From Candidatus Peregrinibacteria bacterium GW2011_GWC2_39_14 (GTDB taxonomy: Bacteria; Patescibacteriota; Gracilibacteria; UBA1369; UBA12463): a stretch of DNA of 64,000 nucleotides. The DNA is taken from NCBI GenBank assembly GCA_000993595.1, contig LBWJ01000007.1:32172-96171 (forward strand). Reading direction: 5' to 3'. Every line of letters starts with the position of its first letter. The first letter of the stretch is position 1. A program made the position numbers and the translations under genes. This document shows, in pieces, positions 29,601-45,278 of this stretch. The notes under the pieces were generated by a model that searched no databases, was not told the origin of the DNA, and saw only the letters and a program-made list of their open reading frames with translations.

Positions 29601-30398
29601 TCGGAGCAGGGAAGTGATTGGGATTTTTCTTTTTCTATCGATTTTTACCGACATAACTCCTTTCTTATCCGTTTCAATTTCAAGCCATGCGCCACGTTTT
29701 GGAATTATTTTTGCGATTGAATATTTTGGAAGTGCAGGATTTTTTTGGAAGACAACGCCAGGGGAGCGAACGAGTTGGCTTACTACGATTCTTTCAATAC
29801 CATTAACAATGAATGTGCCTTTGTTTGTCATCAAAGGTATTGATCCAAGGAAAACGTCCTGTTCCTTAATTTCACCCGTTTCCTTATTAATAAGTTGCAC
29901 GTGCACTTTTAAAGGTGCTTCGTATGTAATATTTTTTGATTTTGCTGTTTCCGCATCATATTTTGGTGCGGCAACGCTGTGGTCAATAAAGCGTAATTCG
30001 AGTTTTTTGGCCGAGAAGTCTGTAATTGGATTGATTTCGTCCAAAAGTTCTTTGATTCCTTCATTAATAAACCATTTATAAGAATCAAGCTGAACTTCGA
30101 TCAAATTTGGAATAACAATGTTTTGATCAAATCTAGGCGAAAAATACTCTCTGTGACTGCTTTCTTTCAAAGGTTCGATTCCGGTTTTGAGAGTAGAGGA
30201 TCTGACCAATTCATAATCGAGCTTTTTTTGCTTTGGCTCAATCTTTTTGGACGATTTCGTCGACTTAACCGATTTGGAAGATTTTGAAGACTTTGGGGCG
30301 ACTTTTTTAGGGGTCACCTTTTTAGAAGCCTTGTTTACAGGCTTTTTTGTTGTTTTTTTAGGCATATGAAAAAAATAAGTTGCTAAGTTGTATGCCAT
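26667..30398 (-). CDS. rpoB: DNA-directed RNA polymerase subunit beta, with a Lys/Ser-rich N-terminal extension
   Basis: Conserved blocks include GPGGLSRERA, RDVHTSHYGRICPISTPEGPNIGL and HGNKGVIS. The ORF-track start at 30410 is a TTG. ATG candidates lie at 30398 and 30365, so the start is uncertain. Confidence 0.97.
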   Translation of the reverse strand: MAYNLATYFFHMPKKTTKKPVNKASKKVTPKKVAPKSSKSSKSVKSTKSSKKIEPKQKKLDYELVRSSTLKTGIEPLKESSHREYFSPRFDQNIVIPNLIEVQLDSYKWFINEGIKELLDEINPITDFSAKKLELRFIDHSVAAPKYDAETAKSKNITYEAPLKVHVQLINKETGEIKEQDVFLGSIPLMTNKGTFIVNGIERIVVSQLVRSPGVVFQKNPALPKYSIAKIIPKRGAWLEIETDKKGVMSVKIDRKRKIPITSLLRIMGYESDKAILEAFADVTDPSNPDYILLTLEKDPAKTMDEAYQQIYKKLRPGDLATPENAKSLIQSMFFDYKKYDMGPVARYKLNKRFGMDIKNVKENHVFQPKDMVEILKHLIKANNGLIGPDDIDHLSNRRIRAVGELVQNKFRIGLLRTERIAKDRMSVMDSETVTPTQLVNSRPVTAALREFFASSQLSQFMDQINPLAELAHKRRLSAMGPGGLSRERASFDVRDVHTSHYGRICPISTPEGPNIGLVVHLGTYARVNKYGFIETPFRTVAHTAPNKPKSLIGRTAAETVTPPKGKNPIFSAGEVITEAAANTLSKYANEIKEVAVRAYVTDDADYYDADEERELIIAQANSPLNEMKEFTVTRVSARKSGDPLLAHINDVTHIDVSSKQIISETTALIPFLEHDDNTRASMGSNMQRQAVSLICPEAPVVGTGMEEVVGRSSGQVIFAEESGTVLYADANEIVVLYDNGRKVKYEINVYERSNQATCLHQRTTTEAGKKIKKGDVLAEGASIEDGELALGQNVLVAYLSWEGYNFEDAVIISERLLKKGTYDSIHIETYTIDVRDTKLGPEIITRDIPNVGEAHLNDLDEDGIVRIGATVYEGDILVGKITPKGETELSAEERLLRAIFGDKARDVKDSSLRLPGGEKGKVIGIQMFSRKDGDELANGVNKQIRVSVAQTRKISIGDKVAGRHGNKGVISIIVPEEDMPFLADGTPVDIVLNPLGVTSRMNIGQILETHLGWAARTLDIKVATPALNGVSHETISNLLKKAGLPEDGKTNLYDGKSGDKFDHPVTVGISYILKLSHLIEDKIHARSIGPYSLVTQQPLGGKAQHGGQRFGEMEVWALEAYGAAHMLQELLTIKSDDVFGRSKAYESIIKGELIKKPRTPEGFNVLIKELQSLCLDVTLLQTKAPEEDQRDEEEYTLSEETAAIETAAGGISPEVTEKLEVLEGSVTAVGLPEEPLTEIEEK

Positions 30399-30437
30399 TT
30401 TTTTTCGCAACTCTTCTAAAGATTGATGGCGCTACTA

Positions 30438-30499: not shown

Positions 30500-31408
30500 T
30501 TATCTTTCTCCTCTAAAGCCTTGTTCTTTAAGATGGCGTCCAAGTACATTTCTGACTTTAGCTCTAACTGCGCTTTCCGGATATCGCTTGTTCATTTCTC
30601 CTGTTATGCATGTGCGTGCTTTTATTTCATTTGCACGAGCCGATGCTTCTTCTTCTTTTTTCCATCTTGCATTTTCTCTATTTTCTATTCCTATTCTTGT
30701 TTTTTCTAATTCTGATGCTCCTTTTGGAACTTCTTCAGGGTTAAGTTTAAAGGACATATTAAATTCATCCGCGTCTATTAAAGGTACGGTGATTTCTCTT
30801 TTTTTGCCTTGTAGACTGGCGTTTACGAGTTGATCTGGGGCGGGGTCTCCGAAAGTGCCATTTTCCATGTTGTCCATGTCATCATATAGATATCCTGCAA
30901 GCCTATACTGTTCTTCTTTAGGTGATTTTCTGTAGCAGGCCGTTATTATTGCTCTTTCTATCTCTTGTCTTAGTTCGTCACAATCTTTTTGAAGGCCTTT
31001 AAGTTTTTCACTGTCTTCCGCTGTTTCGCCTCCTAAGCCTTCGCCGTGAGCTTGTAGTTTTTTAACTATATCTAAAAAGGTTAAAGCCCTTTGTCCTTTT
31101 CCGGCTTGTTCAAGCTTTTTTGCGTAAGCAGTTATTTTTGATATGTCTGTGTCTTTATATATTGCACCGCATCCGTCTTGCATGACTTCTCGCAATAAAT
31201 CGAGTTCTTCATCATTTAGCTCTTCTTGAGAAATTTCAGGTTTTTTTGGAGCTGGCGCTGCTTTTGCTTTTCCTTTTCCTGCTTTGTGTGGGGCTGTGAC
31301 TGCCGGTCTTTTGGTAGAGCCTTTTGGGCGCGCAAAGCCTTCTGATGCAAGCGTTAATCCTGCTATAAAGGTTAATATTGCGACGCTTCTTGACGATGGT
31401 GTATTCAT
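30500..31408 (-). CDS. Hypothetical secreted protein
   Basis: 302 aa. N-terminal signal-like segment (VAILTFIAGLTLASEGFA), then a Lys/Ala/Pro-rich linker and a charged helical body. A consensus promoter lies upstream. No family recognised. Confidence 0.6.
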   Translation of the reverse strand: MNTPSSRSVAILTFIAGLTLASEGFARPKGSTKRPAVTAPHKAGKGKAKAAPAPKKPEISQEELNDEELDLLREVMQDGCGAIYKDTDISKITAYAKKLEQAGKGQRALTFLDIVKKLQAHGEGLGGETAEDSEKLKGLQKDCDELRQEIERAIITACYRKSPKEEQYRLAGYLYDDMDNMENGTFGDPAPDQLVNASLQGKKREITVPLIDADEFNMSFKLNPEEVPKGASELEKTRIGIENRENARWKKEEEASARANEIKARTCITGEMNKRYPESAVRAKVRNVLGRHLKEQGFRGER

Positions 31409-31524: not shown

Positions 31525-32790
31525 TTACTCGATTTTTTTCACCCCATTCATATATGGTTGGAGCACTTTTGGAACATTTATTGTGCCGTCCGCGTTTTGA
31601 TACATTTCCATAACGGGGATGAGAATGCGAGGAGATGCGACGCAAGTATTATTAAGCGTGTGACAAAATTGAGTTTTGCCTTGTGCGTCTTTATATCGAA
31701 GATTTAATCTGCGGGCTTGGAAATCATAAAACATTGAACAGGAATGCGTTTCGCCATAGCTTTTGCGTGATGGCATCCATGTTTCGATGTCGTTTTTATA
31801 AACTTGGCCTTGGCCCATTTCGCCGGTGCAGATTGCGACAACGCGATAGGGGAGTTCGAGCGCTTGCAAAACTTCTTCCGCGTTTCCAAGAATCAAATCA
31901 AACATTTTTTGGCTTTCCGCTTCGTCGGCTTTGCAGATTATTACTTGTTCGACTTTTTGAAATTGATGTACGCGATAAAGTCCGCGAGTGTCTTTTCCGT
32001 ATGTTCCGGCCTCGCGCCTGAAGCAAGGTGAAATTCCGGCATATTTTTTTGGAAGATCTTTTTCTGTGAGAATTTCGTCCGCGTGATATGAGGTGACTGC
32101 GACTTCCGAAGTGCCGATTAAATTCAATTTATCTTTATCAATTCGATATGCTTGCTCTTCACCGCCCGGAAAGTATCCTGTGCCAATCATGGCCTTGTCT
32201 TCAACTAAAACGGGTACTGAAAATGGTGTGAATCCTTTTTTTGCGAGTGTATCGAGCGTGAACATAAGGATTGCCATTTCAAGTCTGACTCCGGCATTTT
32301 TTAAGAAATAGTTTCTTGATCCTGCGATTTTTACGCCGCGTTCCGTATCAATCATGTCGAGTTTTTCTCCGAGCGTCATGTGGTCGAGCGGTTCAAAATC
32401 GAATTTTTTTGGCTCGCCCCAAGTTTTTATCAATTTATAATCTTTTTCGTCGTTTCCCGGTGGACATTTTTCAGATGGGATTTGCGGCACCCAAAGAAGT
32501 AAATGATTAAGCTCTTCATCGATTTGTTTCAATTCTTCATCGAGCGATTTTTCCTTTGCGGTAAGCTCTTTCATGCGCTTTAGAATTTCTTCTTTATTTT
32601 CGCCATGCAGTTTTGGAATCTGTTCGCTGGCGCGATTTTTTTCCGCTTTAATGTTTTCAGTTTGTTTTAGGAGTTCACGTTTTTGCTTATCCAGTTCGAG
32701 CAATTTATCAATATCAACTTTGATTTTTTTAAGTTCCGCGGCGCGTTTTACTGCGTCCGGATTTTCTCGTATGAATTTAAGGTCTAACAT
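31525..32790 (-). CDS. serS: Seryl-tRNA synthetase
   Basis: 421 aa. MLDLKFIRENPD, an N-terminal coiled-coil arm, and class II motifs (FRREAG, GEMGQGQ...YKNDIETWMP). Confidence 0.95.
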   Translation of the reverse strand: MLDLKFIRENPDAVKRAAELKKIKVDIDKLLELDKQKRELLKQTENIKAEKNRASEQIPKLHGENKEEILKRMKELTAKEKSLDEELKQIDEELNHLLLWVPQIPSEKCPPGNDEKDYKLIKTWGEPKKFDFEPLDHMTLGEKLDMIDTERGVKIAGSRNYFLKNAGVRLEMAILMFTLDTLAKKGFTPFSVPVLVEDKAMIGTGYFPGGEEQAYRIDKDKLNLIGTSEVAVTSYHADEILTEKDLPKKYAGISPCFRREAGTYGKDTRGLYRVHQFQKVEQVIICKADEAESQKMFDLILGNAEEVLQALELPYRVVAICTGEMGQGQVYKNDIETWMPSRKSYGETHSCSMFYDFQARRLNLRYKDAQGKTQFCHTLNNTCVASPRILIPVMEMYQNADGTINVPKVLQPYMNGVKKIE

Positions 32791-33609: not shown

Positions 33610-33725
33610 ATAAAAAGAGGTTAGATTTTTAGACGCTGAATTTTATTAAATTTTCAGAGCCGCGTTTATTGTATATAAAAAAGAGTGAGTTTGTCGAGAG
33701 GAATGTGAATTTGTGCGATCAATTT

Positions 33726-34031
33726 TTATTGGGCTGCCTTTGCATCGCCATCGGTTTTAGATGTATTAGCTGCAAGAAGGGCGAAGTATTCTAATAATAT
33801 TCGCGCCTTATCTTTATCGAGACATGAGTTGCCGTGATCTCTGTCGTAGCAATTTGCGTCTATTGTTAATGCTCCTTTTAATTCATGCGGTTTGTCTCTA
33901 TATCGTTCTTCTATTTCTTCTCTTCTCTTTCCAACTGTTTCCTGCCCAACTCTTTTGAGAGCATGGCAAACATCGCACGCTGTTTCTACTTCGTCTATTT
34001 CTGGTAATTCAAAAATTCCGAATTTTGGCAT
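33726..34031 (-). CDS. Hypothetical small protein with four Cys
   Basis: 101 aa. Contains CDVCH and CYDRDHGNSC. A promoter-like TTGACA-N18-TATTTT lies upstream. No family recognised. Confidence 0.45.
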   Translation of the reverse strand: MPKFGIFELPEIDEVETACDVCHALKRVGQETVGKRREEIEERYRDKPHELKGALTIDANCYDRDHGNSCLDKDKARILLEYFALLAANTSKTDGDAKAAQ

Positions 34032-34130
34032 ATTTTTTAAGTTATTACATTTCTGGTGAGTAAAAATACTGTATATCTATTTTTTTGTCAATGCGCTGTT
34101 TAGTGCGTGTTGTGTGCTGATTTGGCAGGT

Positions 34131-35078
34131 TTATGTTCCTGCGTTTTTCCCTGCGTAGTGCTCTGCCACCCACTTATCTACTTTAAGCCATTTTTCACTG
34201 GTTTTATCCGCTTCAAGTTTTATTTTCCAGTTTTCAGGTGGCTGATTTTCGTTTTCAATCAGGCCTGCGTGAGCGAGTCTTTCATGAGGCTTGCAAAGAG
34301 GAATGAGGGTATCGGGATCATGTGTTTTTGTGAGCGCAAACCTCCATGTGTGATGAAGGTATTTATATTCTTTCGTGCATCCCGGGAATGCGCATGTGTT
34401 GTTTGTTTTAGCGAGTACGTATTTTTCGATTTTTGCAGGTACGTATCTTTTTGCATTTTCTTGCGGAATTGGCTTTTTGGCTTCAACTCGCGCTTGATAG
34501 GCTTGCAGAAGTTTTTGCATGAGTTCGTTCCAATTTCCTTGGCCTTTGAGTTTTTGAAGTTGTTCGGCTGTTTCCGGACTTAAATCCATTGTTATTTGTT
34601 CGACACTTAAATCAGAGAATAAAGTTTGATTTTCGTAATAATTTTTTGAGTCGGCGCAAGGGGAACCAAGCTCAGATTTTTTGTATTCTTTTGCATATGC
34701 TGCCAGCGTGTTTTTACTCATTCCCATAGCTTTTTCCGCCCAAAATGCTGCAGTTTCAGGAGTTGCAATATTTGCGATTGGACGAATTATTTCGATGCCT
34801 TTTTCTTCAACAACGCGTTTTAACTCTGGTTTGTCTTCAATTTTTCGCATTGCCCAAAGAGCGACATTAACCGATGCATTATTTATCCCGGCCAGTTTTG
34901 CTGCGTATTCATAAATACTGCTGAATCCTTTTTTCTCCCAAATTCTATATTTTGCTATTTCCGGCAAAAGGATTGTGCATTTTCTTTTCCATTTGAGTGC
35001 ATTTTTGCCATAAAAAGTAAATTTTTCGTGAAGATCTTTTTCGAGAATTTTTTGTGTGTTTTGCGCTACGTTTGTCAT
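34131..35078 (-). CDS. HNH endonuclease domain protein
   Basis: The C-terminal sequence CAFPGCTKEYKYLHHTWRFALTKTHDPDTLIPLCKPHERLAHAGLI fits the HNH pattern (H-N/H-H with flanking Cys). The ORF-track TTG start at 35120 is replaced by the ATG at 35078 (MTNVAQN). Confidence 0.75.
   Translation of the reverse strand: MTNVAQNTQKILEKDLHEKFTFYGKNALKWKRKCTILLPEIAKYRIWEKKGFSSIYEYAAKLAGINNASVNVALWAMRKIEDKPELKRVVEEKGIEIIRPIANIATPETAAFWAEKAMGMSKNTLAAYAKEYKKSELGSPCADSKNYYENQTLFSDLSVEQITMDLSPETAEQLQKLKGQGNWNELMQKLLQAYQARVEAKKPIPQENAKRYVPAKIEKYVLAKTNNTCAFPGCTKEYKYLHHTWRFALTKTHDPDTLIPLCKPHERLAHAGLIENENQPPENWKIKLEADKTSEKWLKVDKWVAEHYAGKNAGT
34615..34690 (-). repeat. Segment of the HNH gene that has a diverged copy at 44215-44290
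   Basis: TTGATTTTCGTAATAATTTTTTGAGTCGGCGCAAGGGGA..CTCAGATTTT here matches TTGATTTTTGTAATAATTTTTTGAGTTGGCGCAAGGGGA..CTCAGATTTT at the other site. I estimate about 85 percent identity by eye. Confidence 0.75.
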
Positions 35079-35201
35079 ATTTTTTAGATTATGTTGTTGC
35101 TGATATTTTAGCTTAAACAAGCCAAAAAATCCAGCTCAACTAAGAATTTTTTGTTGCGAAAAATAGAGGGGAGTATATACTCACCTTTTGAGCGTGAACT
35201 T

Positions 35202-35230
35202 TTGACAAGTATTCTTTGATTTGTTTTAAT
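35202..35230 (+). promoter_or_regulatory. Promoter of ORF 35237 (predicts a leaderless or near-leaderless mRNA)
   Basis: TTGACA (35202-35207), 17-nt spacer, TTTAAT (35225-35230). The ATG lies at 35237. Confidence 0.45.
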
Positions 35231-35236
35231 TAATTT

Positions 35237-35680
35237 ATGAAAATGTTTGAAGCTTTAAGGATACTACCTGTGGAAGTGTGTAATAGAGTTAAAGAAGATG
35301 ATGTTGTTCGTCAGCTTAGTTTTAATACGTGGAAAACTTGCAATCGTATATTGGAGGAAATTGGAGCCGATAGAGTTGTTAATGGTAGAGAGCCTCCGAT
35401 TCCTTTTGAAAGGGGATTTTGGCTTAGCCCGAAGATGAGTACCCGATCTGTTTTAACTCGTCTTTTAATAAAACAAGTTGTAGAAATAAAATTTAAAGAC
35501 ACCCTTTCTTCCAGTGAGGCTGCTTGGGCTTCTATGTCTGATTCGAATGCGGATCAAAAAGAATATGATACTAGAAATGGGCAACTCGCGTTTTATCGCT
35601 TAAAAACTTCAGGAGGTACGAGAAAGTACGTTGAAGATAGGTTGCCAGAAGGCGCTCCTGAGCCAGTTATTGTGAGATGA
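35237..35680 (+). CDS. Hypothetical protein, probable single-module member of the winged-helix-like paralog family
   Basis: 147 aa. ILPVEVCNRV / NRILEEIGADRVV / SVLTRLLIK / LAFYRLK occur with the same spacing as the module in ORFs 38259-42894. A TTGACA-N17-TTTAAT promoter ends 6 nt before the ATG. Confidence 0.5.
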   Translation: MKMFEALRILPVEVCNRVKEDDVVRQLSFNTWKTCNRILEEIGADRVVNGREPPIPFERGFWLSPKMSTRSVLTRLLIKQVVEIKFKDTLSSSEAAWASMSDSNADQKEYDTRNGQLAFYRLKTSGGTRKYVEDRLPEGAPEPVIVR

Positions 35681-35683
35681 GGT

Positions 35684-36058
35684 CTAAGAATGTGGTCCGC
35701 CAAAAATTCTAGCAAGGTCTCCAGCTGTGCGTGGTCCTGCTGGTTCCCATTTGAAATCTCTGTCTTCTCTCAACGTGTATTGTATTGAATTTCGTGCAAC
35801 TCTTGTTGCTTCCATAATTCCATATGCGTCAATGTAACGCACTACAGCAATTTGTTCCATTATGGGTCTTTCTCTGTCCGTGCCTTGTATATGTGTGTCT
35901 TTTAATCCCGGTACGCCAAATGTAATGATGTCTTGTAAAACTCTTCCATATATTCCTTGTTGAATAAGCTGGTCACGTCGTTGTTCATCAGGAACAAGCA
36001 TTAAAAGCTGTTGATCTATGATTGCTCTTATTGGTGTTTCCGTAGGCGAATGTGCCAT
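35684..36058 (-). CDS. Hypothetical protein immediately downstream of dnaK
   Basis: 124 aa. Starts 21 nt after the dnaK stop on the same strand. No HPD motif and no Cys-rich repeat, so it is not DnaJ-like. Confidence 0.5.
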   Translation of the reverse strand: MAHSPTETPIRAIIDQQLLMLVPDEQRRDQLIQQGIYGRVLQDIITFGVPGLKDTHIQGTDRERPIMEQIAVVRYIDAYGIMEATRVARNSIQYTLREDRDFKWEPAGPRTAGDLARIFGGPHS

Positions 36059-36079
36059 ATTTTATCAATTTAATTTTCC

Positions 36080-38062
36080 CTATTTCACCACTTCCCCTTC
36101 GACCACATCATCCCCACCTTTCTTGTTTTTGTCCGTGACTTTTACGCCGTCGTCGGCGCTGCTTGTGCCGTCCGCGCTTGCAGAAGCGTTATTTGCGCTC
36201 GCTGATTCGCTCGCGCTGTCCCCTCCACCCATGCTCGCACCTTCCGCTTTTGAATTTTCCGCAGCAGCTTTATATAACTCCGTTCCAACTTTTTGAATTT
36301 CCGTGGAAAGTTCGTCGTAGGCTTTTTCGAGGTCTTCTTTTTTGATTTCTTTTTCGGCCATAACCTTTTTGAGAGCTTCGATTTTTTCTTGAACAGGTTT
36401 TTTCAACGAATCGGCAACCTTTTCGCCCGCATCTTTCAAGGTTTTTTCAGATTGCATCATAAGGGATTCGGCTTTGTTTTTGAGGTCAATAAGTTCGCGC
36501 TTTTTCTTGTCTTCTTCGGCGTATTGTTCGGCTTCTTTTTTCATTCGTTCAATATCCGCGTCTTTCATGTGGCCACTGCCTGTGATTGTGATGTGCTGTG
36601 TGCGATTTGTGGCTTTATCAACCGCTTTTACGTTCAAAATGCCGTTTGAATCTATGTCTAAGGAAACTTCAATTTGCGGAATTCCGCGAGGTGCCGGAGG
36701 GATGTTATCCAGAATAAATCTTCCGAGAGATTTGTTGTCCGCCGCCATTGGCCTTTCACCTTGCAAAATGTGAATTTCAACGGAAGTTTGATTGTCTGCC
36801 GCAGTTGAGAAAACTTGAGTTTTTGAAGTTGGAATTGTTGTGTTTCTTTCAATCATCGGAGTTGCAACACTTCCTAGAGTTTCGATCGATAGGGTTAGGG
36901 GAGTGACATCCAAAAGCTGAATATCTTTTATGTCGCCCATCAAAACTCCGCCTTGAATTGCCGCACCAATCGCGACAACTTCATCAGGATTTACACCTTT
37001 GTGTGGTTCTTTTGCAAAGAAATCTTTAACTTTTGCTTGAACGGCAGGCATTCTTGTCATACCTCCAACCAAAATAACTTCATCAATGTTTTCCGCTGTT
37101 AATTTGGCGTCTTTAAGCGCTTTTTTGCATGGCTCAACTGTGCGATCAATCAATTCTTGAACAAGTGATTCGAGTTTTGATCTGCTTAATTTTATTAATA
37201 AATGTTTTGGTCCGTTTGAATCCGAAGAAATATATGGAAGATTGATTTCCGTTTCCGCCATTGTGGAAAGTTCGCACTTTGCTTTTTCCGCTGCATCACG
37301 AACGCGCTGAATTGCGACTTTGTCTTGATACAAATCAATTCCTGTTTCTTTTTTGAATTCGTTAATTAAATGATCTGTGATTTTTGCGTCAAAATCGTCA
37401 CCACCAAGTTGCGTATCGCCGTTTGTGGAAAGTACTTCCAAAACACCTTCTCCAATATCAAGAATCGAGATATCAAAAGTTCCACCACCAAGATCATAAA
37501 TCGCAACTTTTTGCTCGCTTTTTTTATCAAGATGATATGCGAGAGCTGCGGCAGTTGGTTCATTTATAATTCTTTTTACTTCAAGTCCTGCGATTGCGCC
37601 AGCGTCTTTTGTAGCTTGTCTCTGCGAATCATTGAAGTATGCGGGAACTGTGATGACAGCTTCCGTTACTTTTTCTCCAAGAAACGCTTCTGCATCAGCC
37701 TTTAGTTTTTGAAGAACCATTGCCGAGATTTCTGCAGGTTTCTTTTTTTCGCCGTTCAAAATAATCATTGCGTCGCCTTCAGGTCCACGTTCAACTTTAT
37801 ATCCAAGGCGTTTGACGTCTGCGGTTGATTCGTCATATTTGCGACCAATCAAACGTTTTGCGGAATAAATCGTGTTTTCCGAGTTCATAACCGCTTGGCG
37901 TTTTGCTGTGATTCCGACCGTTCGATTTCCGTCTTTTATCGCGACAACCGATGGAGTTGTGCGCATTCCTTCGGAGTTTTCGATGACTGTTGGTTCTCCA
38001 CCTTGCATAACTGCAACGCAAGAGTTTGTTGTACCAAGATCAATTCCTATAATTCTTCCCAT
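36080..38062 (-). CDS. dnaK: Chaperone DnaK (Hsp70)
   Basis: 660 aa. [21 protein letters not shown], and an EEVD-less acidic or Gly/Ser-rich tail. Confidence 0.98.
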
Positions 38063-38073
38063 AGTTTATTTTG

Positions 38074-38114
38074 TTTAATTTATATATAGACCTGTGCTGC
38101 TTCGCAGCGGTCTG
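38074..38114 (-). repeat. Module A hairpin plus AUAUAAAU linker in the dnaK 5' UTR
   Basis: AGACC-TGT-GCTGC-TTC-GCAGC-GGTCT (38088-38113) directly abuts CIRCE. The linker TTTAATTTATATAT lies on the dnaK side. Confidence 0.7.
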
Positions 38115-38141
38115 TTAGCACTCAGAATTATAGAGTGCTAA
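38115..38141 (-). promoter_or_regulatory. CIRCE operator (HrcA binding site) upstream of dnaK
   Basis: TTAGCACTC-N9-GAGTGCTAA, a perfect match to the CIRCE consensus inverted repeat. Confidence 0.9.
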
Positions 38142-38155
38142 ATTTAAGTCGTCAA
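38127..38155 (-). promoter_or_regulatory. dnaK promoter with its -10 box inside the CIRCE loop
   Basis: Minus strand TTGACG (38155-38150), 17-nt spacer, TATAAT (38132-38127). The TATAAT falls within the 9-nt CIRCE spacer. Confidence 0.65.
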
Positions 38156-38258
38156 GAGGAAATGCGGGGACGGAGGTGGTTTTACGCAAAGCTTGATTTT
38201 AAGTTGATTCGTGTGTTAATTTAATCCTCCTGTGTATAGTGATTTTGATTGAATTTAT

Positions 38259-38879
38259 ATGGAGATCAAAGCCTTTAGACATTTTGTTCAGCAAGTTACG
38301 CCTCCAATTATTTTGCGTAAATTTGCCGATGTTTTTGCGGGACTAGAGAAATTTTGTAGGCCAACTTCGGATGCTGTAAGAAATGCTTTGGCCGATGGAG
38401 GAGTTTTTGTTGATGAAGTTGCTCTAAGCGATATTGCTCCTGTAGCTTTTGATGCTTCTGATGTCGTTATTGAAAAAGATCCTGCAGGTCTTGATGAAGA
38501 TGCGGATGATTGTTCTTTGGATGGAGGGCTGACTATTGCTGAGATTACTGCGTTTGAGTTAAGCGGGTTATCCGTTGTGCATGAAGAGGTTGATTCTGCT
38601 CTTGCGTGGGCTTCTAAGTTTGGATGGAAAGGCGAAAAGAATCGTGTTCTTGTATTTCTTGCGCAGAATATTGGAAAGTTTTTTCAAGACAGGGAAGTTA
38701 ATGAGCTTGTTGGCGGAGTTAGTGATTTAGACGATGTTGTTTCTGAGATTTTAAGAGATTATAGATATAAAAATTCTCCTTATGCTATTCAAAAAAGAAT
38801 TGTTAAGGGTAGGCCTGATGCAACCGGTGACGTTGATGTTCGTTACGTTTATCGTTTGACGCTTAGGCATTTGGGCTAG
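38259..38879 (+). CDS. Hypothetical protein: acidic N-terminal region plus a winged-helix-like module
   Basis: 206 aa. The C-terminal ~110 aa (HEEVDSALAWA ... FLAQNIGKFF ... VVSEILRDYRYKNSPYAIQKRIV ... RYVYRLTL) align by eye with modules in 40006, 40659 and 41362. Confidence 0.6.
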   Translation: MEIKAFRHFVQQVTPPIILRKFADVFAGLEKFCRPTSDAVRNALADGGVFVDEVALSDIAPVAFDASDVVIEKDPAGLDEDADDCSLDGGLTIAEITAFELSGLSVVHEEVDSALAWASKFGWKGEKNRVLVFLAQNIGKFFQDREVNELVGGVSDLDDVVSEILRDYRYKNSPYAIQKRIVKGRPDATGDVDVRYVYRLTLRHLG

Positions 38880-38896
38880 GTTTAGGGAACTAGGTT

Positions 38897-39931
38897 CAAT
38901 AAGTAAGTGCAACACTCTGATAAAATCAGAGATATGCAATATACACACATTTCGATAGAAGAAAGAGAGAAGATACAGGAGATGCTTTGGCAGAAAAAAT
39001 CTGTCAGACAAATAGCTAAAGCCTTAAATCGTAGTCCATCTTCGATATCCAGGGAGATTTTTCGTAATCAAAGTCGATTAAAGCAACTATATAGGCCACG
39101 AATAGCCCAAGATAGAGCCGATATGCATAAGAAGTACCGTGGTCGAGAAAAACGTTTAAAAAACGAAATCATTCGTTCATACGTGATAAGCAAGCTAAGA
39201 GAAAGATGGTCTCCGGAACAGATATCCGGAAGACTCAGAATTGATCATCCGGAACAAGCAATCTCACATGAAGCCATATATCAATATGTATATGCTCAAA
39301 TACATCGCGACGGATATGGATATCTGAGGCCTGAATGTGAAGATTTGCGCATCTATTTGCGCCGAAGGAGGAAGCGCCGCGTTCATAAAGGGTATAGAAA
39401 ATGCTCAAGAACTTCGTTGATACGGGGTCGTTCAATTAATGTAAGGCCTGCTGTTGTGAACGAAAGAATAAGAGTTGGTGATTGGGAAGGTGATTCGGTT
39501 GCTTCAGTCAGCAACAAAACGGGAATAAACACTTTAGTGGAGAGAAAAATAGGGTATTTGATGATGACCAAGCTAAAAAACAAAACCGGCAAAGCAACCA
39601 CAAACGTTGTTTCAAAGAGACTGTCAATTTTGCCTGAAAAACTAAGACTCACTTTAACTCTTGATAACGGACCTGAGAATCAAGATTGGCAGACAATAGA
39701 GGAAAGGATAAGGATAACGTGCTATCACGCTAATCCATATCATTCTTGGGAAAGAGGAACCAATGAAAATACCAACAGCTTGATACGCCAATATTTCCCT
39801 AAAAAAACAGACTTTGGTATGATTAGCGATGAACAGATTAAACGAGTAGAAACATTTTTAAACAATCGTCCCAGAAAAAGACTTAACTATAAAACGCCTT
39901 TAGAGGCTATGAGTGTTGCGCTTGAAAGTTG
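38897..39931 (+). mobile_element. IS30-family insertion sequence (~1.0 kb)
   Basis: A single transposase ORF is flanked by imperfect terminal inverted repeats. The left core AAGTGCAACACTC (38905-38917) matches the right core GAGTGTTGCGCTT (39911-39923), 12 of 13 as reverse complement. The outer boundaries are approximate and I could not identify target duplications. Confidence 0.7.
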
Positions 39932-39932
39932 A
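38934..39932 (+). CDS. IS30 family transposase
   Basis: N-terminal HTH (ISIEEREKIQEMLWQKKSVRQIAKALNRSPSSISREI). DDE triad context GDWEGDSV ... TLDNGPEN ... HSWERGTNENTNSLIRQYFPKKTDF. The ORF-track GTG at 38907 lies inside the left inverted repeat, so I prefer the ATG at 38934. Confidence 0.9.
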   Translation: MQYTHISIEEREKIQEMLWQKKSVRQIAKALNRSPSSISREIFRNQSRLKQLYRPRIAQDRADMHKKYRGREKRLKNEIIRSYVISKLRERWSPEQISGRLRIDHPEQAISHEAIYQYVYAQIHRDGYGYLRPECEDLRIYLRRRRKRRVHKGYRKCSRTSLIRGRSINVRPAVVNERIRVGDWEGDSVASVSNKTGINTLVERKIGYLMMTKLKNKTGKATTNVVSKRLSILPEKLRLTLTLDNGPENQDWQTIEERIRITCYHANPYHSWERGTNENTNSLIRQYFPKKTDFGMISDEQIKRVETFLNNRPRKRLNYKTPLEAMSVALES

Positions 39933-39949
39933 ATGTACCGGACTTGCCA

Positions 39950-39977
39950 TTGACAAACGTAAATTATTAGGTACAAT
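39950..39977 (+). promoter_or_regulatory. Promoter of ORF 40006, just outside the IS30 right end
   Basis: TTGACA (39950-39955), 16-nt spacer, TACAAT (39972-39977). Confidence 0.55.
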
Positions 39978-40005
39978 AGTTTGGCGTATTAATTAATAAT
40001 AATTT

Positions 40006-40650
40006 ATGAGCGATAGATTGCCTGTGCTTGTAACGGTTGAGCAGCTTCAAGCCGGTTTAGAGAAGATTGAAGCTATGCGTCGTGAGCTTGCGGAATTATC
40101 GGATTTAGTTAGACGATCATTGGCTGATGTTCAGCAAAGAGAGTCAGATTCGCGGTCACCTGCTTTGGACGCTGCGTTATATAAAAAGAAGTTGCGCAAA
40201 GTGCATCCACAGGGGACGAAAAACATAGACACCACAATTGGATTTGATCCTGCGAGTAGAGCCGTGACCGTTTATCCAAAGCAAGCAATGCAAGTGTTCC
40301 CTTTGCTTGGTGCTGAGATTGAAAATGCTGTGAGATGGATGGCCTCTAATATGATTAAAGGAACGCATAGCCCTATGATTTCTAGGTTTTTTGCAGAAAA
40401 TACAGGCAGAATTATGGATATGAGAGAAGTTGATGCTCATATGAGGACTAGATTTCCAAATTTTTGGGGTTCTCAACTTATTAATCAATTAAGGAATAAG
40501 TTAGCGTCTAAAAAGGCTCCTTATAGAATTTTTGTTATGTACGTTGAAAGTGATTGTGAAAAAAATACTATGCATAATGCTGTTTTTGGTTTATTTCCTG
40601 CGGAAACAAAGGCAGGGGATTTGGAAGAGCGTCTTGCGGATTTTAAATAA
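40006..40650 (+). CDS. Hypothetical protein: coiled-coil N terminus plus a winged-helix-like module
   Basis: 214 aa. VFPLLGAEIENAVRWM ... FFAENTGRIM ... LINQLRNKLASKKAPYRIFVMYV ... AVFGLFP. A TTGACA-N16-TACAAT promoter lies upstream. Confidence 0.6.
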   Translation: MSDRLPVLVTVEQLQAGLEKIEAMRRELAELSDLVRRSLADVQQRESDSRSPALDAALYKKKLRKVHPQGTKNIDTTIGFDPASRAVTVYPKQAMQVFPLLGAEIENAVRWMASNMIKGTHSPMISRFFAENTGRIMDMREVDAHMRTRFPNFWGSQLINQLRNKLASKKAPYRIFVMYVESDCEKNTMHNAVFGLFPAETKAGDLEERLADFK

Positions 40651-40658
40651 AATATATT

Positions 40659-41309
40659 ATGACTAATTTTGTATCACCATCGTTATTGCAAGCCGTAGGG
40701 GAGTTAGACGAATTGTTTGCGGCTAAAGTTCTCGGCGCATTTGATGATATTGATGCCGGAATTGGTAAAATGATGGACGAATTTCGAGCCGGGATTGAGA
40801 GCCTTACTGTTGATGTTGAAGTGCTTGAGGCGGAAGTCAAAAGATTGTGCGCAGATCGCGGTGAAGGTCCTGAGATTGAATTGCCGCCGCATTTTCCACA
40901 AGAAGGGCCGGGTGGAGTTGTGGGAATTGTCAATTTGCTTGATGAGGATGTTTTGCTTGTTGATTCAGATTTTTTAAAAAGATTTGAGATTTTTCCCGGC
41001 GCTGAAGCGGCCGCTTTAGAGATTGAAAAGTTGTTTTGCGGGAATGGTCTTTTGATGACTTCTAAGCGTATTTTTTTAACGACTTTAGCTAAAAAACTTG
41101 GTTGTTTTGTTTTTAGAAAGGACATTGATTCTGGATTAGCAAATGCTGGTATTGACGTGGTAAACAGCCCTTATCCTACTCCACATATATTTAGCAATTT
41201 ATATCTTTTTGGCAGGATAAATGATTTACCTTATGACCTGGAAAGAATTTACGTTTTGGTTGGTTCGAAAAAGAAAGTAGCCTATCGATTGGTGCCAAAG
41301 AGCCTTTGA
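40659..41309 (+). CDS. Hypothetical protein: acidic N terminus plus a winged-helix-like module
   Basis: 216 aa. IFPGAEAAALEIEKLF ... FLTTLAKKLGCFVF ... VVNSPYPTP ... KVAYRLVPK. Starts 8 nt after the previous ORF. Confidence 0.55.
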   Translation: MTNFVSPSLLQAVGELDELFAAKVLGAFDDIDAGIGKMMDEFRAGIESLTVDVEVLEAEVKRLCADRGEGPEIELPPHFPQEGPGGVVGIVNLLDEDVLLVDSDFLKRFEIFPGAEAAALEIEKLFCGNGLLMTSKRIFLTTLAKKLGCFVFRKDIDSGLANAGIDVVNSPYPTPHIFSNLYLFGRINDLPYDLERIYVLVGSKKKVAYRLVPKSL

Positions 41310-41361
41310 TTTGACTTCTTGCAATGTTGTATGCTAGTTTAAATCCCTGTTTTAAAAAATT

Positions 41362-42894
41362 ATGGAAACACGAGATCAACATTTAGAAGGATTACAAGGC
41401 AATGCATTAACGGTTGTCAATCAAGCTTTTGAAGCACTTGCCGCCGTTCTTGAGAAGCTTGGCGCTGATAGAGAAGGTATAAAAATTAGAGTTGAATTGG
41501 TTTATTCCAGCCCTGAATCAGATAAGCCGGCTACTTTGCATGCTCATATGGATGTTGACGTGAATCTTGATTTGTCGCATGTTGATGCAGTTGAGCCTGC
41601 GAATGTTGCTGATGTTATCCCTCCAGTAGACGATGAGCAGATTTTACGACGCACCGGACTTGGACAGTTGGTTGTTTATCCTCCTTCTTATTTGGATCAG
41701 TTCCCCGTTCTTCAAGAAGAGGTCCAGCCTGCTTTGGAGTTTTTTAAAGGTCATCAAAGAAAAAAACATAGTCAAAGTAAAGGTGTTGAGGATATTTTAG
41801 CTACAAATTTTGGCTCATATGTTCCATCAAGCGTTTTAATGAATAGTGTAGAGGACGAGCGTGTAGCTGCGGGTTTGAGTCAAAAGCCTAAGCACACCAT
41901 TGCTCGAATTATTAATACTCTTGTAAATGGTAAATTAAAAAAATCTCCTTATGCAATTGAATCAATTCCAGTGAGTCGTGAGCAACCGGATCTAAAAACC
42001 GGCAGAAGTTTTTATACTGCATATAGAATTATTAGAAAGCCTGGCGTTGACGTTAAGGTTTCTGACCTTGATGGGAAAAAGCCTTCTAAAGGTCGCGAAA
42101 AACCTTCTGAAATTTATGAGCTTGCGCATTTGGATCAATTTCCGCTTATTGAAGACGAAGTTCAACCTGCGCTTGATTGGTTTGATGCTCATCGAAGAGG
42201 GGGGCATTCTGATTCTAAAGTTTTTGAATATTTGTTTAGTGCTAATTTTGGTAAATATATCTTGAGATCTTCTATTGAAAAAGGCGTTCTTCAGCAAAGG
42301 GAAAAATCAAGTCATCCCGCTGATAAGAAATTGGCTACTGTTCAAAGATTATTGGGGACTTTTAAAAATATGAAAATGAAAGATTCGCCTTATATGCTTG
42401 AGAGAATTCCTGTTTATTGTGAGGATGGTCGATTTAACGATGGTGCGCGTAAATATGATTATGCTTATAGAATGGTAAAAAAAGACGTTAAGTCGAAAAA
42501 AGATGAATTACCTGATAGGGAGGAGCTTGCGAATTTGCCTATTCTTGAAGATCATGTTCAGCCTGCGACTAAAGTAGTTGAGGATAATTTCTTGCTAGAC
42601 GGTAAGGGTTCGAAAGGCGTTTCACGAGCCATATTTTTTTTCTTGGCTAAAAATGTAGGGCGTTATTTTGCTCCTAGTAATTCTGATTGGCTTTCATTTG
42701 TAAGTGATCAGGTAAAGGGAGGGAGCGGTAGCGTTAATTCCGGATCTTTTCATGCTACGTTAGTTAGTAGCTCGGGCGTTAGATTAACAGACCTTTTGTC
42801 CAAAATTGAATTAAAGCTTGATAAGCGCACGTGTAAGGGATTGGGGACTCAAAAGTCCTGTATTGCTTTTGGGATTGTGCCGATTGAAAAATAA
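41362..42894 (+). CDS. Hypothetical protein with three tandem winged-helix-like modules
   Basis: 510 aa. Internal repeats lie at about aa 105-226, 250-375 and 385-510 (DQFPVLQEEVQPALEFF / DQFPLIEDEVQPALDWF / NLPILEDHVQPATKVV; KKSPYAIESIPV / KDSPYMLERIPV; YTAYRIIRK / YAYRMVKK). Confidence 0.65.
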   Translation: METRDQHLEGLQGNALTVVNQAFEALAAVLEKLGADREGIKIRVELVYSSPESDKPATLHAHMDVDVNLDLSHVDAVEPANVADVIPPVDDEQILRRTGLGQLVVYPPSYLDQFPVLQEEVQPALEFFKGHQRKKHSQSKGVEDILATNFGSYVPSSVLMNSVEDERVAAGLSQKPKHTIARIINTLVNGKLKKSPYAIESIPVSREQPDLKTGRSFYTAYRIIRKPGVDVKVSDLDGKKPSKGREKPSEIYELAHLDQFPLIEDEVQPALDWFDAHRRGGHSDSKVFEYLFSANFGKYILRSSIEKGVLQQREKSSHPADKKLATVQRLLGTFKNMKMKDSPYMLERIPVYCEDGRFNDGARKYDYAYRMVKKDVKSKKDELPDREELANLPILEDHVQPATKVVEDNFLLDGKGSKGVSRAIFFFLAKNVGRYFAPSNSDWLSFVSDQVKGGSGSVNSGSFHATLVSSSGVRLTDLLSKIELKLDKRTCKGLGTQKSCIAFGIVPIEK

Positions 42895-42899
42895 GAATC

Positions 42900-43403
42900 T
42901 TAAGCTCCGTTTCCAACCTTAACTTTTGCTGGTCTCAAAACTTTATCGCCGATCATATAGCCTTTTTCGATTTCTTCGATGATTGTGCCTTTTTCGCCCG
43001 TGGTTTCTGCAATTGCTTCGTGAAAGTTTGGATCAAATGGATTTCCAAGTGATTCGAAAGATTTTACGTCATATTTTTCAAGAAGGGCTTTGAGCTGGGA
43101 TTGAATTCCGATAATTCCTTTTTTGTGATCTTCGGGGATGTTGTCTGTTTCCATGGCTTTCAATGCACGCTCAAAATTGTCCAAGACCGATAAAAGTTCG
43201 ATTAAAATTTTTGCGCTTCCAAAGCTTGCGAGAGCGAGTTTTTCTTCTTCTGCGCGTTTGCGATAATTTGCAAGATCAGCCATCGTGCGTTTGCATGCTT
43301 CTGTCATGAGTTCGAGTTTTTGTTGAAGCTCTGCGACGGATTCGGCGGATGGGTCTTGAGGTTGTGTGCCATCTTGTTGAGGATTTGTGTTTTCGTCTGC
43401 CAT
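42900..43403 (-). CDS. grpE: Nucleotide exchange factor GrpE
   Basis: 167 aa. RTMADLANYRKRAEEE ... LSVLDNFERAL ... FDPNFHEAI ... GYMIGDKVLRPAKVKV. Confidence 0.93.
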   Translation of the reverse strand: MADENTNPQQDGTQPQDPSAESVAELQQKLELMTEACKRTMADLANYRKRAEEEKLALASFGSAKILIELLSVLDNFERALKAMETDNIPEDHKKGIIGIQSQLKALLEKYDVKSFESLGNPFDPNFHEAIAETTGEKGTIIEEIEKGYMIGDKVLRPAKVKVGNGA

Positions 43404-43405
43404 AT

Positions 43406-44128
43406 TTATTTGTTTCTTAATAATTTTTTTATTTCTTCAACGAGCACCATGTTATACGGATAATCCATTCGCATCGGACCGAGTATGCCAAGAAATCCTT
43501 CAAAACCGTCCAATTCATATTTTGTGACGATTATGCTGCAGCTGTGAATTTGCGGGATTATATTTTCTTGTCCGATAAAAACGTCGGCTTTTTCGCCTAT
43601 TTCAAGCGATTTTAAGATTTTTATAAAATTGTCGTTTTCTTCAAGAACTTCCATAACTTGGCTTGCACTGACAGGATCGTTTATGAATTCCGGTTGTCTT
43701 AAAGCGTTTGAAACTCCCAGATAAAAAGTTCTTTGATTATCCGGCAAAGTTGCAAAACTTACGTTATGCGTTGCGCGTGAAAGAAGGTGAACGGCTTCGT
43801 GAAGTTTTTCTTTTGTTTTTTGTATTTTATATTCTTCACGCATTGGAATTAAGGCTTTCTCAACACGTTTTCTGGCAGAATCATAATCCGCGATTTCTTC
43901 AACATATTTGCGATAACCTTGTTGTGTTGGAACGCGTCCTGCGGAAGTGTGTGGTTGAAAAATAAAACCTTCTTCTTCAAGTTCTGCCATGTCATTTCGA
44001 ACAGTCGCCGGGCTTACGTTCAAGTGATATTGAACGATAATAATGTTTGACCCAACCGGTTCGGCGGTTTCAATGAATCGCTGAACGATTGCTTTTAATA
44101 TGCTGATTTTTCGATTTCCGAAATCCAA
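43406..44128 (-). CDS. hrcA: Heat-inducible transcription repressor HrcA (compact, 240 aa)
   Basis: TTG start. ILKAIVQRFIETAEPVGSNIII...VSPATVRNDMAELEEEGFIFQPHTSAGRVPT is the HrcA wHTH. A CIRCE operator lies directly upstream. Shorter than the usual ~340 aa. Confidence 0.88.
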   Translation of the reverse strand: MDFGNRKISILKAIVQRFIETAEPVGSNIIIVQYHLNVSPATVRNDMAELEEEGFIFQPHTSAGRVPTQQGYRKYVEEIADYDSARKRVEKALIPMREEYKIQKTKEKLHEAVHLLSRATHNVSFATLPDNQRTFYLGVSNALRQPEFINDPVSASQVMEVLEENDNFIKILKSLEIGEKADVFIGQENIIPQIHSCSIIVTKYELDGFEGFLGILGPMRMDYPYNMVLVEEIKKLLRNK

Positions 44129-44152
44129 AGTAGGTGTTTTTAAATGTGCCGG

Positions 44153-44179
44153 TTAGCACTGTAAAGTATATAGTGCTAA
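44153..44179 (-). promoter_or_regulatory. CIRCE operator upstream of hrcA-grpE
   Basis: On the plus strand TTAGCACTG-N9-TAGTGCTAA, with one compensated change from the consensus in each arm. It lies 25 nt upstream of the hrcA start. Confidence 0.85.
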
Positions 44180-44193
44180 TTTGAATATGGCAA
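44165..44193 (-). promoter_or_regulatory. hrcA promoter with its -10 box inside the CIRCE loop
   Basis: Minus strand TTGCCA (44193-44188), 17-nt spacer, TATACT (44170-44165). Confidence 0.55.
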
Positions 44194-44214
44194 GGGAATG
44201 CCAGGTTTTTATTC

Positions 44215-44290
44215 TAGAAAATAAATCTTGATTTTTGTAATAATTTTTTGAGTTGGCGCAAGGGGATCTCCGCTCAGATTTTAATATTCT
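44215..44290 (-). pseudogene. Relic fragment (~75 nt) of an HNH-endonuclease gene paralog
   Basis: Matches an internal part of gene 34131-35078 (see the paired repeat). It lies between the hrcA promoter and the 3' end of ORF 44281-44895 and overlaps that ORF's stop codon. Confidence 0.6.
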
Positions 44291-44895
44291 TCCAAGTCTT
44301 TTAAAATGAAATTTCCCTCTGCGTCGCATAAATATATAAAAGCTCCAGTTGTTTCGTGTTTACCTACTGGCGTTAGTATTTTTGTGCTAAATGCATATTT
44401 TAAAGCTTCCTTTGTGGTCGCTTCTGTTCCATATGTCATTTTACCTGTAGCTTTGAGCGGAAAATGCCATATTTTCTGGCCATTAGGTAGCGTTCTAAGT
44501 GGCATGGTTTCGTCTCTTACAGTTGTGACATCGGAAGCATTTGGTGTTTCGCTTGCACTTGGAAGTGCGTCTGAAGGTGCTTTTGTTTTTGTTCCCGATA
44601 AAATAAGATTGCCTTGTTCGTCGCATAAAACGATTGGCCTTGGATTTTCTTGAGTTTTACCTATTGTGATTAATTTTCCGGTTTGTACTGCTTCAACTTC
44701 TGCAAATCCATGTGTCAAAACTTCCATTGCGCTTGCGTATCTTCCAAAAATTGTTCCGCCTCTTCTTGGATGGTTAAATTTCCAGACCGTACCTTTTCCG
44801 GTTTCTAAAGAAAGTGTTGATTTAGGTTGTACCGGTCCTTGTATTTGTCTGTATTCTTGTGTGCCTTCGTCGTCTAAAAGAAATGCTTTTTCCAT
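44281..44895 (-). CDS. Hypothetical protein, two copies of a (W/F)(K/H)F...CDxxGNxIL module
   Basis: 204 aa. The halves TVWKFNHPRRGG...RPIVLCDEQGNLIL and KIWHFPLKATGK...AFIYLCDAEGNFIL align with each other and with ORF 45021-45278. A consensus promoter lies upstream. Confidence 0.6.
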   Translation of the reverse strand: MEKAFLLDDEGTQEYRQIQGPVQPKSTLSLETGKGTVWKFNHPRRGGTIFGRYASAMEVLTHGFAEVEAVQTGKLITIGKTQENPRPIVLCDEQGNLILSGTKTKAPSDALPSASETPNASDVTTVRDETMPLRTLPNGQKIWHFPLKATGKMTYGTEATTKEALKYAFSTKILTPVGKHETTGAFIYLCDAEGNFILKDLEEY

Positions 44896-45020: not shown

Positions 45021-45278
45021 TTATTGAATGAGTACTCCGTTTGCGTCGCATGAAACTATTGGATGCATGTCTTCGCCTATAGTTAATATTGATATTCCGT
45101 TCGACATTTCGTCTACAATTGCTCTTCGTCCGCAGATTGGTCCTTTTTCTCCCTCTCCAAATTTAAAAACTCTGCCGTGCTCCGTGTCTTTGAATGGAAG
45201 AGTCTCTAGTCTTACTCTGGTGTCACCGATACGTTCCATTGTTTGATCGTCTCCATCTCCCAGATGTGGTGCATTCAT
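45021..45278 (-). CDS. Hypothetical protein, single copy of the same module
   Basis: 85 aa. RVFKFGEGEKGP...HPIVSCDANGVLI. A TTGACG-N16-TATGAT promoter lies upstream. Confidence 0.55.
   Translation of the reverse strand: MNAPHLGDGDDQTMERIGDTRVRLETLPFKDTEHGRVFKFGEGEKGPICGRRAIVDEMSNGISILTIGEDMHPIVSCDANGVLIQ

Follow-up and report, generated by a model that had tools for sequence, protein, structure and literature searches.

What are the genes that stand between grpE and dnaK in Candidatus Peregrinibacteria bacterium GW2011_GWC2_39_14, and are they residents or recent arrivals? The question concerns a stretch of 64,000 nucleotides of contig LBWJ01000007.1 (forward strand, positions 32,172 to 96,171; hereafter the window, whose own numbering is used), in which about 4.8 kb separate the two heat-shock genes. 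An earlier inspection made without database searches (the sequence-only reading) had described five plus-strand open reading frames (ORFs), called A to E here, as sharing one module, present seven times in five proteins, and had suggested that they may be orphan relatives of the OmpR/PhoB winged-helix effector domain (Trans_reg_C) carried on an insertion-prone island. The present analysis retains the module in four of these ORFs (B, C, D and E). We read it as a divergent winged helix that comes closest, among detectable relatives, to OmpR/PhoB-type domains, and we give about even chances to B–E being lineage-specific, receiver-less winged-helix proteins that bind nucleic acids and act as transcription regulators. 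The cluster that they form is a fixed feature of a small lineage, and only the IS30-family insertion sequence (IS) inside it is a recent insertion.

The shared module and its genes

All five ORFs are found on the plus strand as described, opposite to dnaK (36080-38062, 660 aa), grpE (42900-43403, 167 aa) and hrcA (43406-44128, 240 aa), which lie on the minus strand; dnaK, divergent from gene B, is the left conserved flank of the block, and grpE and hrcA are the right one. Gene B (38259-38879, 206 aa) combines an acidic N-terminal region with one C-terminal module (38514-38876), gene C (40006-40650, 214 aa) a coiled-coil-like N-terminus with one module (40246-40647), and gene D (40659-41309, 216 aa) an acidic N-terminus with one divergent module (40944-41306). 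In gene E (41362-42894, 510 aa, product 100% identical to UT33_C0007G0073), an acidic N-terminus is followed by three tandem modules: E1 (41647-42081), E2 (42082-42537) and the degenerate E3 (42538-42891).

With blastp, E1 and E2 match each other at an E-value of 6e-28, and the remaining module pairs are marginal (1e-2 to 1e-4). A hidden Markov model (HMM) built from E1 and E2 only, run against the 671 six-frame ORFs of the window, put C at the top (E 2e-4), with B next (0.025); gene D was not separable from noise in this search. The profile-profile comparison that the sequence-only reading had called for connected the B–E ortholog groups, with hhalign probabilities of 99.7% for E1-E2, 95.1% for C-E1, 93.6% for C-E2, 83.5% for B-C, 81.0% for C-D, 80.2% for B-E1 and 49.6% for D-E2. 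E3 aligned over its N-terminal half only, at no more than 35% with the window groups vs. 86% with the profile of distant modules described below. Judged by these profiles, the resemblance between B, C, D and E is more than chance, and the predicted count is corrected to six modules, the degenerate E3 included, distributed over four proteins. The part of the claim that falls away is ORF A (35237-35680, plus strand, 147 aa), a conserved hypothetical gene outside the module family: it scored 0.1-0.3% against every group with hhalign and had no HMM or blast match.

The N-terminal regions of B–E are mutually unrelated, as had been noted; in B, D and E they are acidic, with isoelectric points (pI) of 4.1-4.3. 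An AGLEK-like motif, seen by eye in these regions, was rejected as a sign of homology (hhalign at most 1.7%). Most modules are basic (pI 8.6-9.9). Also in line with the sequence-only reading, a Pfam scan found no receiver or sensor domain attached to B–E.

Non-synonymous (dN) and synonymous (dS) divergence was calculated by the Nei-Gojobori method between the window and the orthologous locus (L001) of Peregrinibacteria GW2011_GWF2_38_29. The dN/dS ratio is 0.16 for B, 0.36 for C, 0.37 for D and 0.45 for E, vs. 0.03-0.09 for serS, dnaK, hrcA and grpE, and no segment exceeded 1 in a module-by-module comparison. As dS falls in the same range in the cluster (0.23-0.60) and in the flanks (0.37-0.53), these ratios point to purifying but much relaxed selection and to a history common with the neighbours. 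All four are thus genuine genes, passed on vertically; the hypothesis of spurious ORFs was ruled out by dN/dS, by the orthologs and by confident structure models.

Fold and distant relatives of the module

A 26-module alignment (window modules, orthologs and distant relatives) was used as profile A3. Its common pattern runs from A-x-x-W and FLAxNxG through a variable stretch to SPYxIE and YRL. Searched against all PDB sequences, A3 gave 18 matches at E ≤10, 13 of which were OmpR/PhoB-type DNA-binding domains, including 1p2f DrrB (0.027), ArlR, RstA, VbrR, CadC, ToxR and CpxR; with E-values of 0.03-0.9 none of these 13 is significant alone, and collectively they are consistent and in register. 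When A3 was compared by hhalign with an alignment of eight Trans_reg_C domains (PhoB, OmpR, KdpE, CpxR, PhoP, ArcA, ToxR and CadC), a probability of 90.7% was obtained (P 1.3e-6); the match spans 65 columns, beginning at alpha1 and reaching the first strand of the hairpin. Controls remained low, at 0.3% for reversed profiles, at most 1.0% for 30 column shuffles and 0.2% for single MarR and ArsR sequences. Single Trans_reg_C sequences scored between 0.7 and 57%, always in the identical register, and the six window modules without their relatives still reached 78.8%.

Structure models of two modules were made with AlphaFold2 (AF2). The B module (26 alignment rows) was modelled at a predicted local distance difference test (pLDDT) of 88.4 and a predicted TM score (pTM) of 0.81, with the order H-H-H-b-H-H-b-b: helices at residues 13-18, 23-34 and 41-51, a strand at 57-58, helices at 59-66 and 72-81 (continued at 83-86), and strands at 90-101 and 107-117. 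The E2 module (14 rows; pLDDT 78.9, pTM 0.70) has the same order, with N-terminal helices at 14-19 and 24-36. Both predicted structures thus display the winged-helix topology H1-b1-H2-H3-b2-b3.

The likeness to the OmpR/PhoB family (PF00486) lies in the core order of alpha1, strand, alpha2, alpha3 and hairpin, and in patterns that stand in register (LLxfLAxNxG; xxLRxKL; P-x-x-I-x-T/V; aromatic-Y-R). ToxR, CadC and the SARP/AfsR proteins of that family are, like B–E, without a receiver domain. In contrast to this family, the module stays below the gathering threshold, has two helices in place of the four-stranded sheet and a much longer hairpin, and occurs in tandem, with two to three copies per protein at this locus and seven in a distant relative. 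The E modules further differ by long alpha2-alpha3 inserts, and B–E have no membrane or BTAD partner domain. With the winged helix-turn-helix regulators of the MarR, ArsR and Rrf2 type the module shares its topology: distant members match HTH_5, MarR_2, Rrf2, IclR and PF0610-like_N below threshold, and the top Foldseek matches of the models are such regulators (3r0a, 4nb5, Fur). However, the scores remain under the cut-offs, hhalign gives 0.2%, and MarR/ArsR dimerisation helices are absent. Proteins with several winged helices per chain (the SelB C-terminus, RepE/pi initiators, ScpB/MukE, Pol III C34) resemble the family in that respect; the comparison draws on general knowledge and on weak, non-significant Foldseek matches to C34, MukE and an Smc5/6 subunit, with no sequence similarity detected.

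Several observations weigh against the reading of B–E as winged-helix, DNA-binding regulators. No Pfam, NCBIfam, PHROG or PADLOC model was significant on B–E, and Trans_reg_C itself gave no match up to an E-value of 1. Scanned singly, the modules scatter below threshold over ArsR, Rrf2, MarR, IclR, ScpB and Trans_reg_C, a single one of the 26 reaching 0.077 for the last. The Trans_reg_C reference sequences were entered by hand, although each was confirmed as PF00486 (1e-20 to 1e-30). Groups D, E1 and E2 individually show no Trans_reg_C similarity with hhalign, so that it takes the pooled profile to make the link. The four-stranded antiparallel beta-sheet that precedes alpha1 in OmpR/PhoB domains is absent from the AF2 models, where two helices take its place. 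Foldseek searches of PDB with the two models and of BFVD returned nothing below E 0.001, so structural support stops at topology; the top matches are winged-helix regulators (the three named above, Pol III C34 and VbrR) at TM scores of 0.3-0.4, and VbrR (7e1b; E 3.3, 54 columns, root-mean-square deviation 3.4) is the sole OmpR/PhoB-type one. The product of gene B is acidic overall (pI 4.7). No candidate operator for the B–E proteins was found; TTGATT-N5-TTGATT, a direct repeat upstream of B, shows neither enrichment nor conservation. Finally, winged helices can also bind RNA or proteins. The proposal of a Trans_reg_C-like winged helix is therefore kept in part: topology and profile similarity support it, but strict membership of Trans_reg_C fails, with no match at the threshold and no N-terminal beta-sheet, and the structure prediction and Foldseek search that had been suggested yielded the topology without a significant structural neighbour.

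Word-indexed searches of 5.8 billion proteins recovered orthologs only, and one with the 26-module profile recovered orthologs of B only. A profile made from the modules of the window and from their orthologs, run exhaustively with HMMER against 1.84 billion representatives, retrieved three distant relatives, P0012 (E 1.7e-13), P0013 (2.6e-6, three modules) and P0016 (1.7e-4, three modules), none of which is encoded beside heat-shock genes. It also recovered the C and D homologs of a third genome, introduced below, and three further matches were discarded on inspection as repeat artefacts. P0012 (1336 aa), from another uncultivated bacterium, consists of seven modules followed by a sigma-70 core (regions 2-4), in which Sigma70_r3 is above threshold and the NCBIfam RpoS/RpoD models match at 1e-15 to 1e-11 (residues ~846-1124); it also matches a PHROG sigma factor family at 5e-20. 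P0013 is encoded in GWF2_38_29, which is closely related to the genome of the window, directly downstream of two sigma-70 paralogs.

These paralogs, of 606 and 615 aa, stand in tandem (contig L008, 3886-7942) just before P0013. Their N-terminal 100-240 residues have in common a W-x-x-E-[VI]-THYT-x-LTY motif with a weak resemblance to the module; the candidate presence of modules there, at an hhalign probability of only 26%, is no more than a lead. A literature search on sigma factors and winged helices in Peregrinibacteria listed no paper that mentions this group, hence nothing relevant.

An old locus with a recent insertion

Only two further genomes were found to carry the locus in scans that covered 185,579 species-representative genomes and the metagenome contigs of the Joint Genome Institute (JGI). 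One is GWF2_38_29, where dnaK, B, C, D, E, grpE and hrcA follow each other in the same order and orientation as in the window, without the IS30 and without ORF A. The other is a metagenome-assembled genome (MAG) with locus tags WCT36_ (isolate SO_2016_GW1_125; contigs L005/L004/L012 and L003, assigned to one MAG from their common sample and locus-tag prefix). There, dnaK is followed by an unrelated 240-aa gene in the slot of B, a C homolog, a 387-aa protein, E, grpE and hrcA; the 387-aa protein is a D homolog with an extra E1-like module fused to its N-terminus.

The flanking heat-shock genes carry their own control elements. A search for the CIRCE operator (controlling inverted repeat of chaperone expression) with the pattern TTAGCACTC-N9-GAGTGCTAA, for which 0.02 matches are expected by chance, located a perfect copy at 38115-38141, in the divergent dnaK/B intergenic region, and one with two mismatches on the hrcA side at 44153-44179. 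The former overlaps the -10 element of a predicted dnaK promoter, TTGACG-17-TATAAT (38155-38127, minus strand), and is identical in GWF2_38_29 and in the third genome (L012); the latter overlaps the -10 element of a predicted sigma-70-type hrcA-grpE promoter (44193-44165, minus strand). Both dnaK and hrcA thus have a predicted HrcA/CIRCE operator, and since each unit has its own promoter and CIRCE, dnaK and hrcA-grpE are separate, individually controlled units, between which the cluster is an old resident. Within the cluster, the best promoter match in 35000-44300 (11/12) is the sigma-70-like TTGACA-16-TACAAT at 39950-39977 on the plus strand, a predicted promoter of a C-D-E unit, whose surrounding sequence is conserved in GWF2_38_29. 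The TTGATT repeat upstream of B was considered as an OmpR-like direct-repeat operator and rejected (6 matches vs. 4.4 expected; not conserved in GWF2_38_29); the -35 region of a B promoter is the likelier reading of it. At the other end of the cluster, the stop codons of E and grpE, which converge, are 5 bp apart (42894-42900), leaving no room for separate terminators, so that the convergent transcripts probably overlap.

The IS30-family element announced by the sequence-only reading is indeed present, at 38886-39942 on the plus strand (1057 bp). Its transposase gene (38907-39932, 341 aa) is intact, matching NCBIfam NF033563 at E 2e-74 and carrying an N-terminal HTH_38, and its ends are imperfect terminal inverted repeats of ~27 nt. 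In GWF2_38_29, the B-C spacer has 3 bp (AAG) in its place, i.e. an empty site. With its transposase, its HTH_38, its size of ~1.06 kb and its inverted repeats the element is a regular member of the IS30 family, from which it differs in that no clear target-site duplication could be read from the comparison with GWF2_38_29. It is present once in the window and ends 7 bp upstream of the predicted C-D-E promoter, so the C-D-E unit probably keeps its own promoter. The insertion of the IS30 into the B-C spacer is therefore recent and strain-specific, and it left the C promoter intact.

These observations bear on the proposal that a mobile, IS30-associated island was inserted into a once-contiguous hrcA-grpE-dnaK operon. 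In its favour, the genes lie on the strand opposite to their flanks and an IS30 is present, but the synteny comparison in relatives, which the sequence-only reading had suggested, returned a conserved, non-island locus, the very outcome that it had named as counting against the island. The cluster occupies the same dnaK-grpE slot in two other genomes, the copy in GWF2_38_29 being without IS30; the G+C content of the block (0.39-0.41) and its dS are like those of the flanks; dnaK has its own promoter and CIRCE; and the window holds no integrase, no border tRNA and no second IS copy. Only the IS30 itself is strain-specific, and an island origin is hardly credible. GC skew turns positive over the block, as expected with plus-strand genes.

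The other part of the proposal, a rapid diversification of the genes, is well borne out, with ortholog identities of 34-91% vs. 98% for DnaK. The three genomes are about equidistant in housekeeping genes (dnaK 98% amino-acid identity and dS 0.30-0.42; hrcA 97.5-99%; grpE 93-94%). Identity to GWF2_38_29 and to the third genome is respectively 79 and 34% for C (dS ~1.3 and dN 0.82 for the latter), 67 and 52% for D (the latter over the aligned part; 49% by BLASTP), and 59 and 66% for E, while B is 91% identical in GWF2_38_29 and replaced in the third genome. Relationships also change along E: E1 is closest between GWF2_38_29 and the third genome (0.73, vs. 0.50 and 0.58 for the other pairs), E3 between the window and the third genome (0.88, vs. 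0.62 and 0.66). Such changes from module to module suggest that alleles were replaced, or recombined, between flanks that stayed conserved. When the orthologs are compared on the B model, the region of alpha2, loop and alpha3 has an identity of 0.54 and the scaffold elements one of 0.74 (Fisher P 5e-9, with columns that are not fully independent). OmpR/PhoB proteins use alpha3 to read DNA, and their alpha2-alpha3 loop contacts RNA polymerase. The fastest-changing part thus corresponds to the OmpR/PhoB contact surface, which suggests that the interaction surface is what diversifies.

Possible roles and significance

How might such proteins work? In the predicted fold, each module of 90-150 aa comprises two capping helices, which carry the A-x-x-W motif, and a core that leads from alpha1 (FLAxNxG) through a short strand, alpha2 and alpha3 into a long beta-hairpin (SPYxIE...YRL); the core is a remote relative of the OmpR/PhoB effector domain. 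The most likely function would be nucleic acid binding, probably of DNA, as transcription regulators. Single-module proteins may oligomerise or dock on partners through their coiled-coil or acidic N-termini. Head-to-tail dimers of OmpR/PhoB proteins read tandem direct repeats; the two or three covalently linked modules of the gene E product could do the same within one chain. Specificity for DNA, or for an RNA polymerase or sigma partner, would appear to diversify between strains. We infer DNA binding, the regulator role and the reading of direct repeats from these likenesses; sequence-specific binding by B–E through H3 and the wing, in particular, would be supported indirectly at best, by the basic modules and by the sigma-70 fusion of P0012.

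The same fusion may be read otherwise. The modules could be protein-protein adaptors for sigma-70 or RNA polymerase, co-sigma or anti-sigma-like rather than sequence-specific DNA binders, with the acidic N-termini acting like sigma region 1.1. P0012 with its seven modules ahead of a sigma-70 core, the adjacency of P0013 to two sigma genes, the acidic N-termini of B, D and E and the variability of the alpha2-alpha3 loop, which is the RNA polymerase contact in PhoB and here among the most variable parts, all agree with this. Yet extra DNA contacts would explain the fusion equally well, the modules are basic, the N-termini of the sigma paralogs show only a weak match to the module (26%) and the window has no sigma gene next to the cluster; we judge adaptors unlikely, if well worth keeping in mind. 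A role in heat shock, with B–E regulating dnaK or hrcA-grpE or being clients or co-factors of DnaK, would account for the dnaK-grpE position conserved in all three genome types, for the divergent transcription of B and of dnaK with its CIRCE-controlled promoter (B being 118 bp away from the CIRCE) and for the close convergence of E and grpE. Chaperone partners are normally very conserved, but B–E outpace DnaK 10-30 times in non-synonymous divergence and have no J-domain or other chaperone domain, and P0012, P0013 and P0016 are encoded away from heat-shock genes; such a role is decidedly doubtful.

The fast divergence could also mark a strain-specificity or conflict locus, concerned with phage exclusion, mobile-element control or host-symbiont interaction, whose alleles are exchanged via the dnaK and grpE flanks. 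The distance of C in the third genome (34% identity and dS ~1.3, while dnaK has ~0.4), the unrelated gene in the B slot and the module gained by D there, the differing phylogeny of the E modules, and the IS30 insertion with other strain-specific indels nearby all speak for it. Against this, known defence or phage families were tried without a PADLOC or PHROG match on B–E, the cluster has no enzymatic effector, toxin or nuclease domain, dN/dS is below 1 in every module, and three genome types make population-level inference thin; we regard a conflict locus as rather improbable. Of similarly low probability is a combined picture, in which the dnaK-grpE slot would be a recombining allelic cassette of promoter-specificity factors, OmpR/PhoB-like winged helices joined covalently in tandem that dock on sigma-70 or RNA polymerase. 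Winged-helix regulators remain the reading that we prefer.

The surroundings of the cluster vary between strains as well. The cassette at 35191-36079, 3' of dnaK, comprises ORF A and a convergent 124-aa ORF (35684-36058, minus strand); in GWF2_38_29 a 266-aa membrane protein, unrelated to them, is encoded in its place, and an ORF A homolog, 90% identical, adjoins dnaK in the third genome (L012). The C-terminal tail of DnaK (36080-36290) is Ser/Ala/Gly-rich and of low complexity, and it varies in length from strain to strain (DnaK has 660 aa here and 639 aa in L012). Upstream of hrcA, 44281-44895 and 45021-45278 (both minus strand) encode paralogous small proteins of 204 and 85 aa (blastp 1e-4), the former with two copies of a ~70-aa unit; the homologs in GWF2_38_29 have 120 and 88 aa, and there is no Pfam match. 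Two segments are missing from the otherwise collinear L001: 30476-31530, with a 302-aa Lys/Glu-rich ORF (30500-31408, minus strand), and 33714-34154, with a 101-aa ORF (33726-34031, minus strand). The reverse holds for L001 16128-17245, missing from the window. A 329-aa conserved hypothetical protein (34131-35120, minus strand), 92% identical in GWF2_38_29 and without a Pfam match, shows by eye a C-terminal HNH-like motif (HHTWRF...CKPHERLAH). RpoB (26667-30410, minus strand) has a Lys/Ser-rich N-terminal extension of ~60 aa (KKTTKKPVNKASKKV...). Elsewhere in the window are a 2810-aa ORF (8791-17223, minus strand), a FecR and DUF5667 protein (53649-55490, plus strand) and a 1294-aa protein with SLH, CAP and LytR_cpsA_psr domains (57432-61316, minus strand).

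In bacteria of the Candidate Phyla Radiation (CPR), few transcription factors can be recognised, and no function is assigned to the majority of the lineage-specific genes. The corrected picture of a stable locus, with a recent IS30 and with ORF A set apart, prevents the block from being annotated as a mobile island. What stands between two of the most conserved genes of the genome is a very fast-evolving, mosaic locus, and hence a convenient marker of strain-level diversification. If the promoter-specificity cassette outlined above were real, it would be a CPR-specific way to reprogram or individualise promoter recognition between strains, possibly serving the exclusion of phages or mobile elements. 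The family appears to be a narrowly distributed, undescribed form of a known kind of domain, with a function predicted from its sequences. For this family, which has no Pfam, NCBIfam or PHROG model, the analysis proposes a fold and a role that is plausible, and ties it to sigma-70 through one fusion (P0012) and one gene adjacency (P0013).

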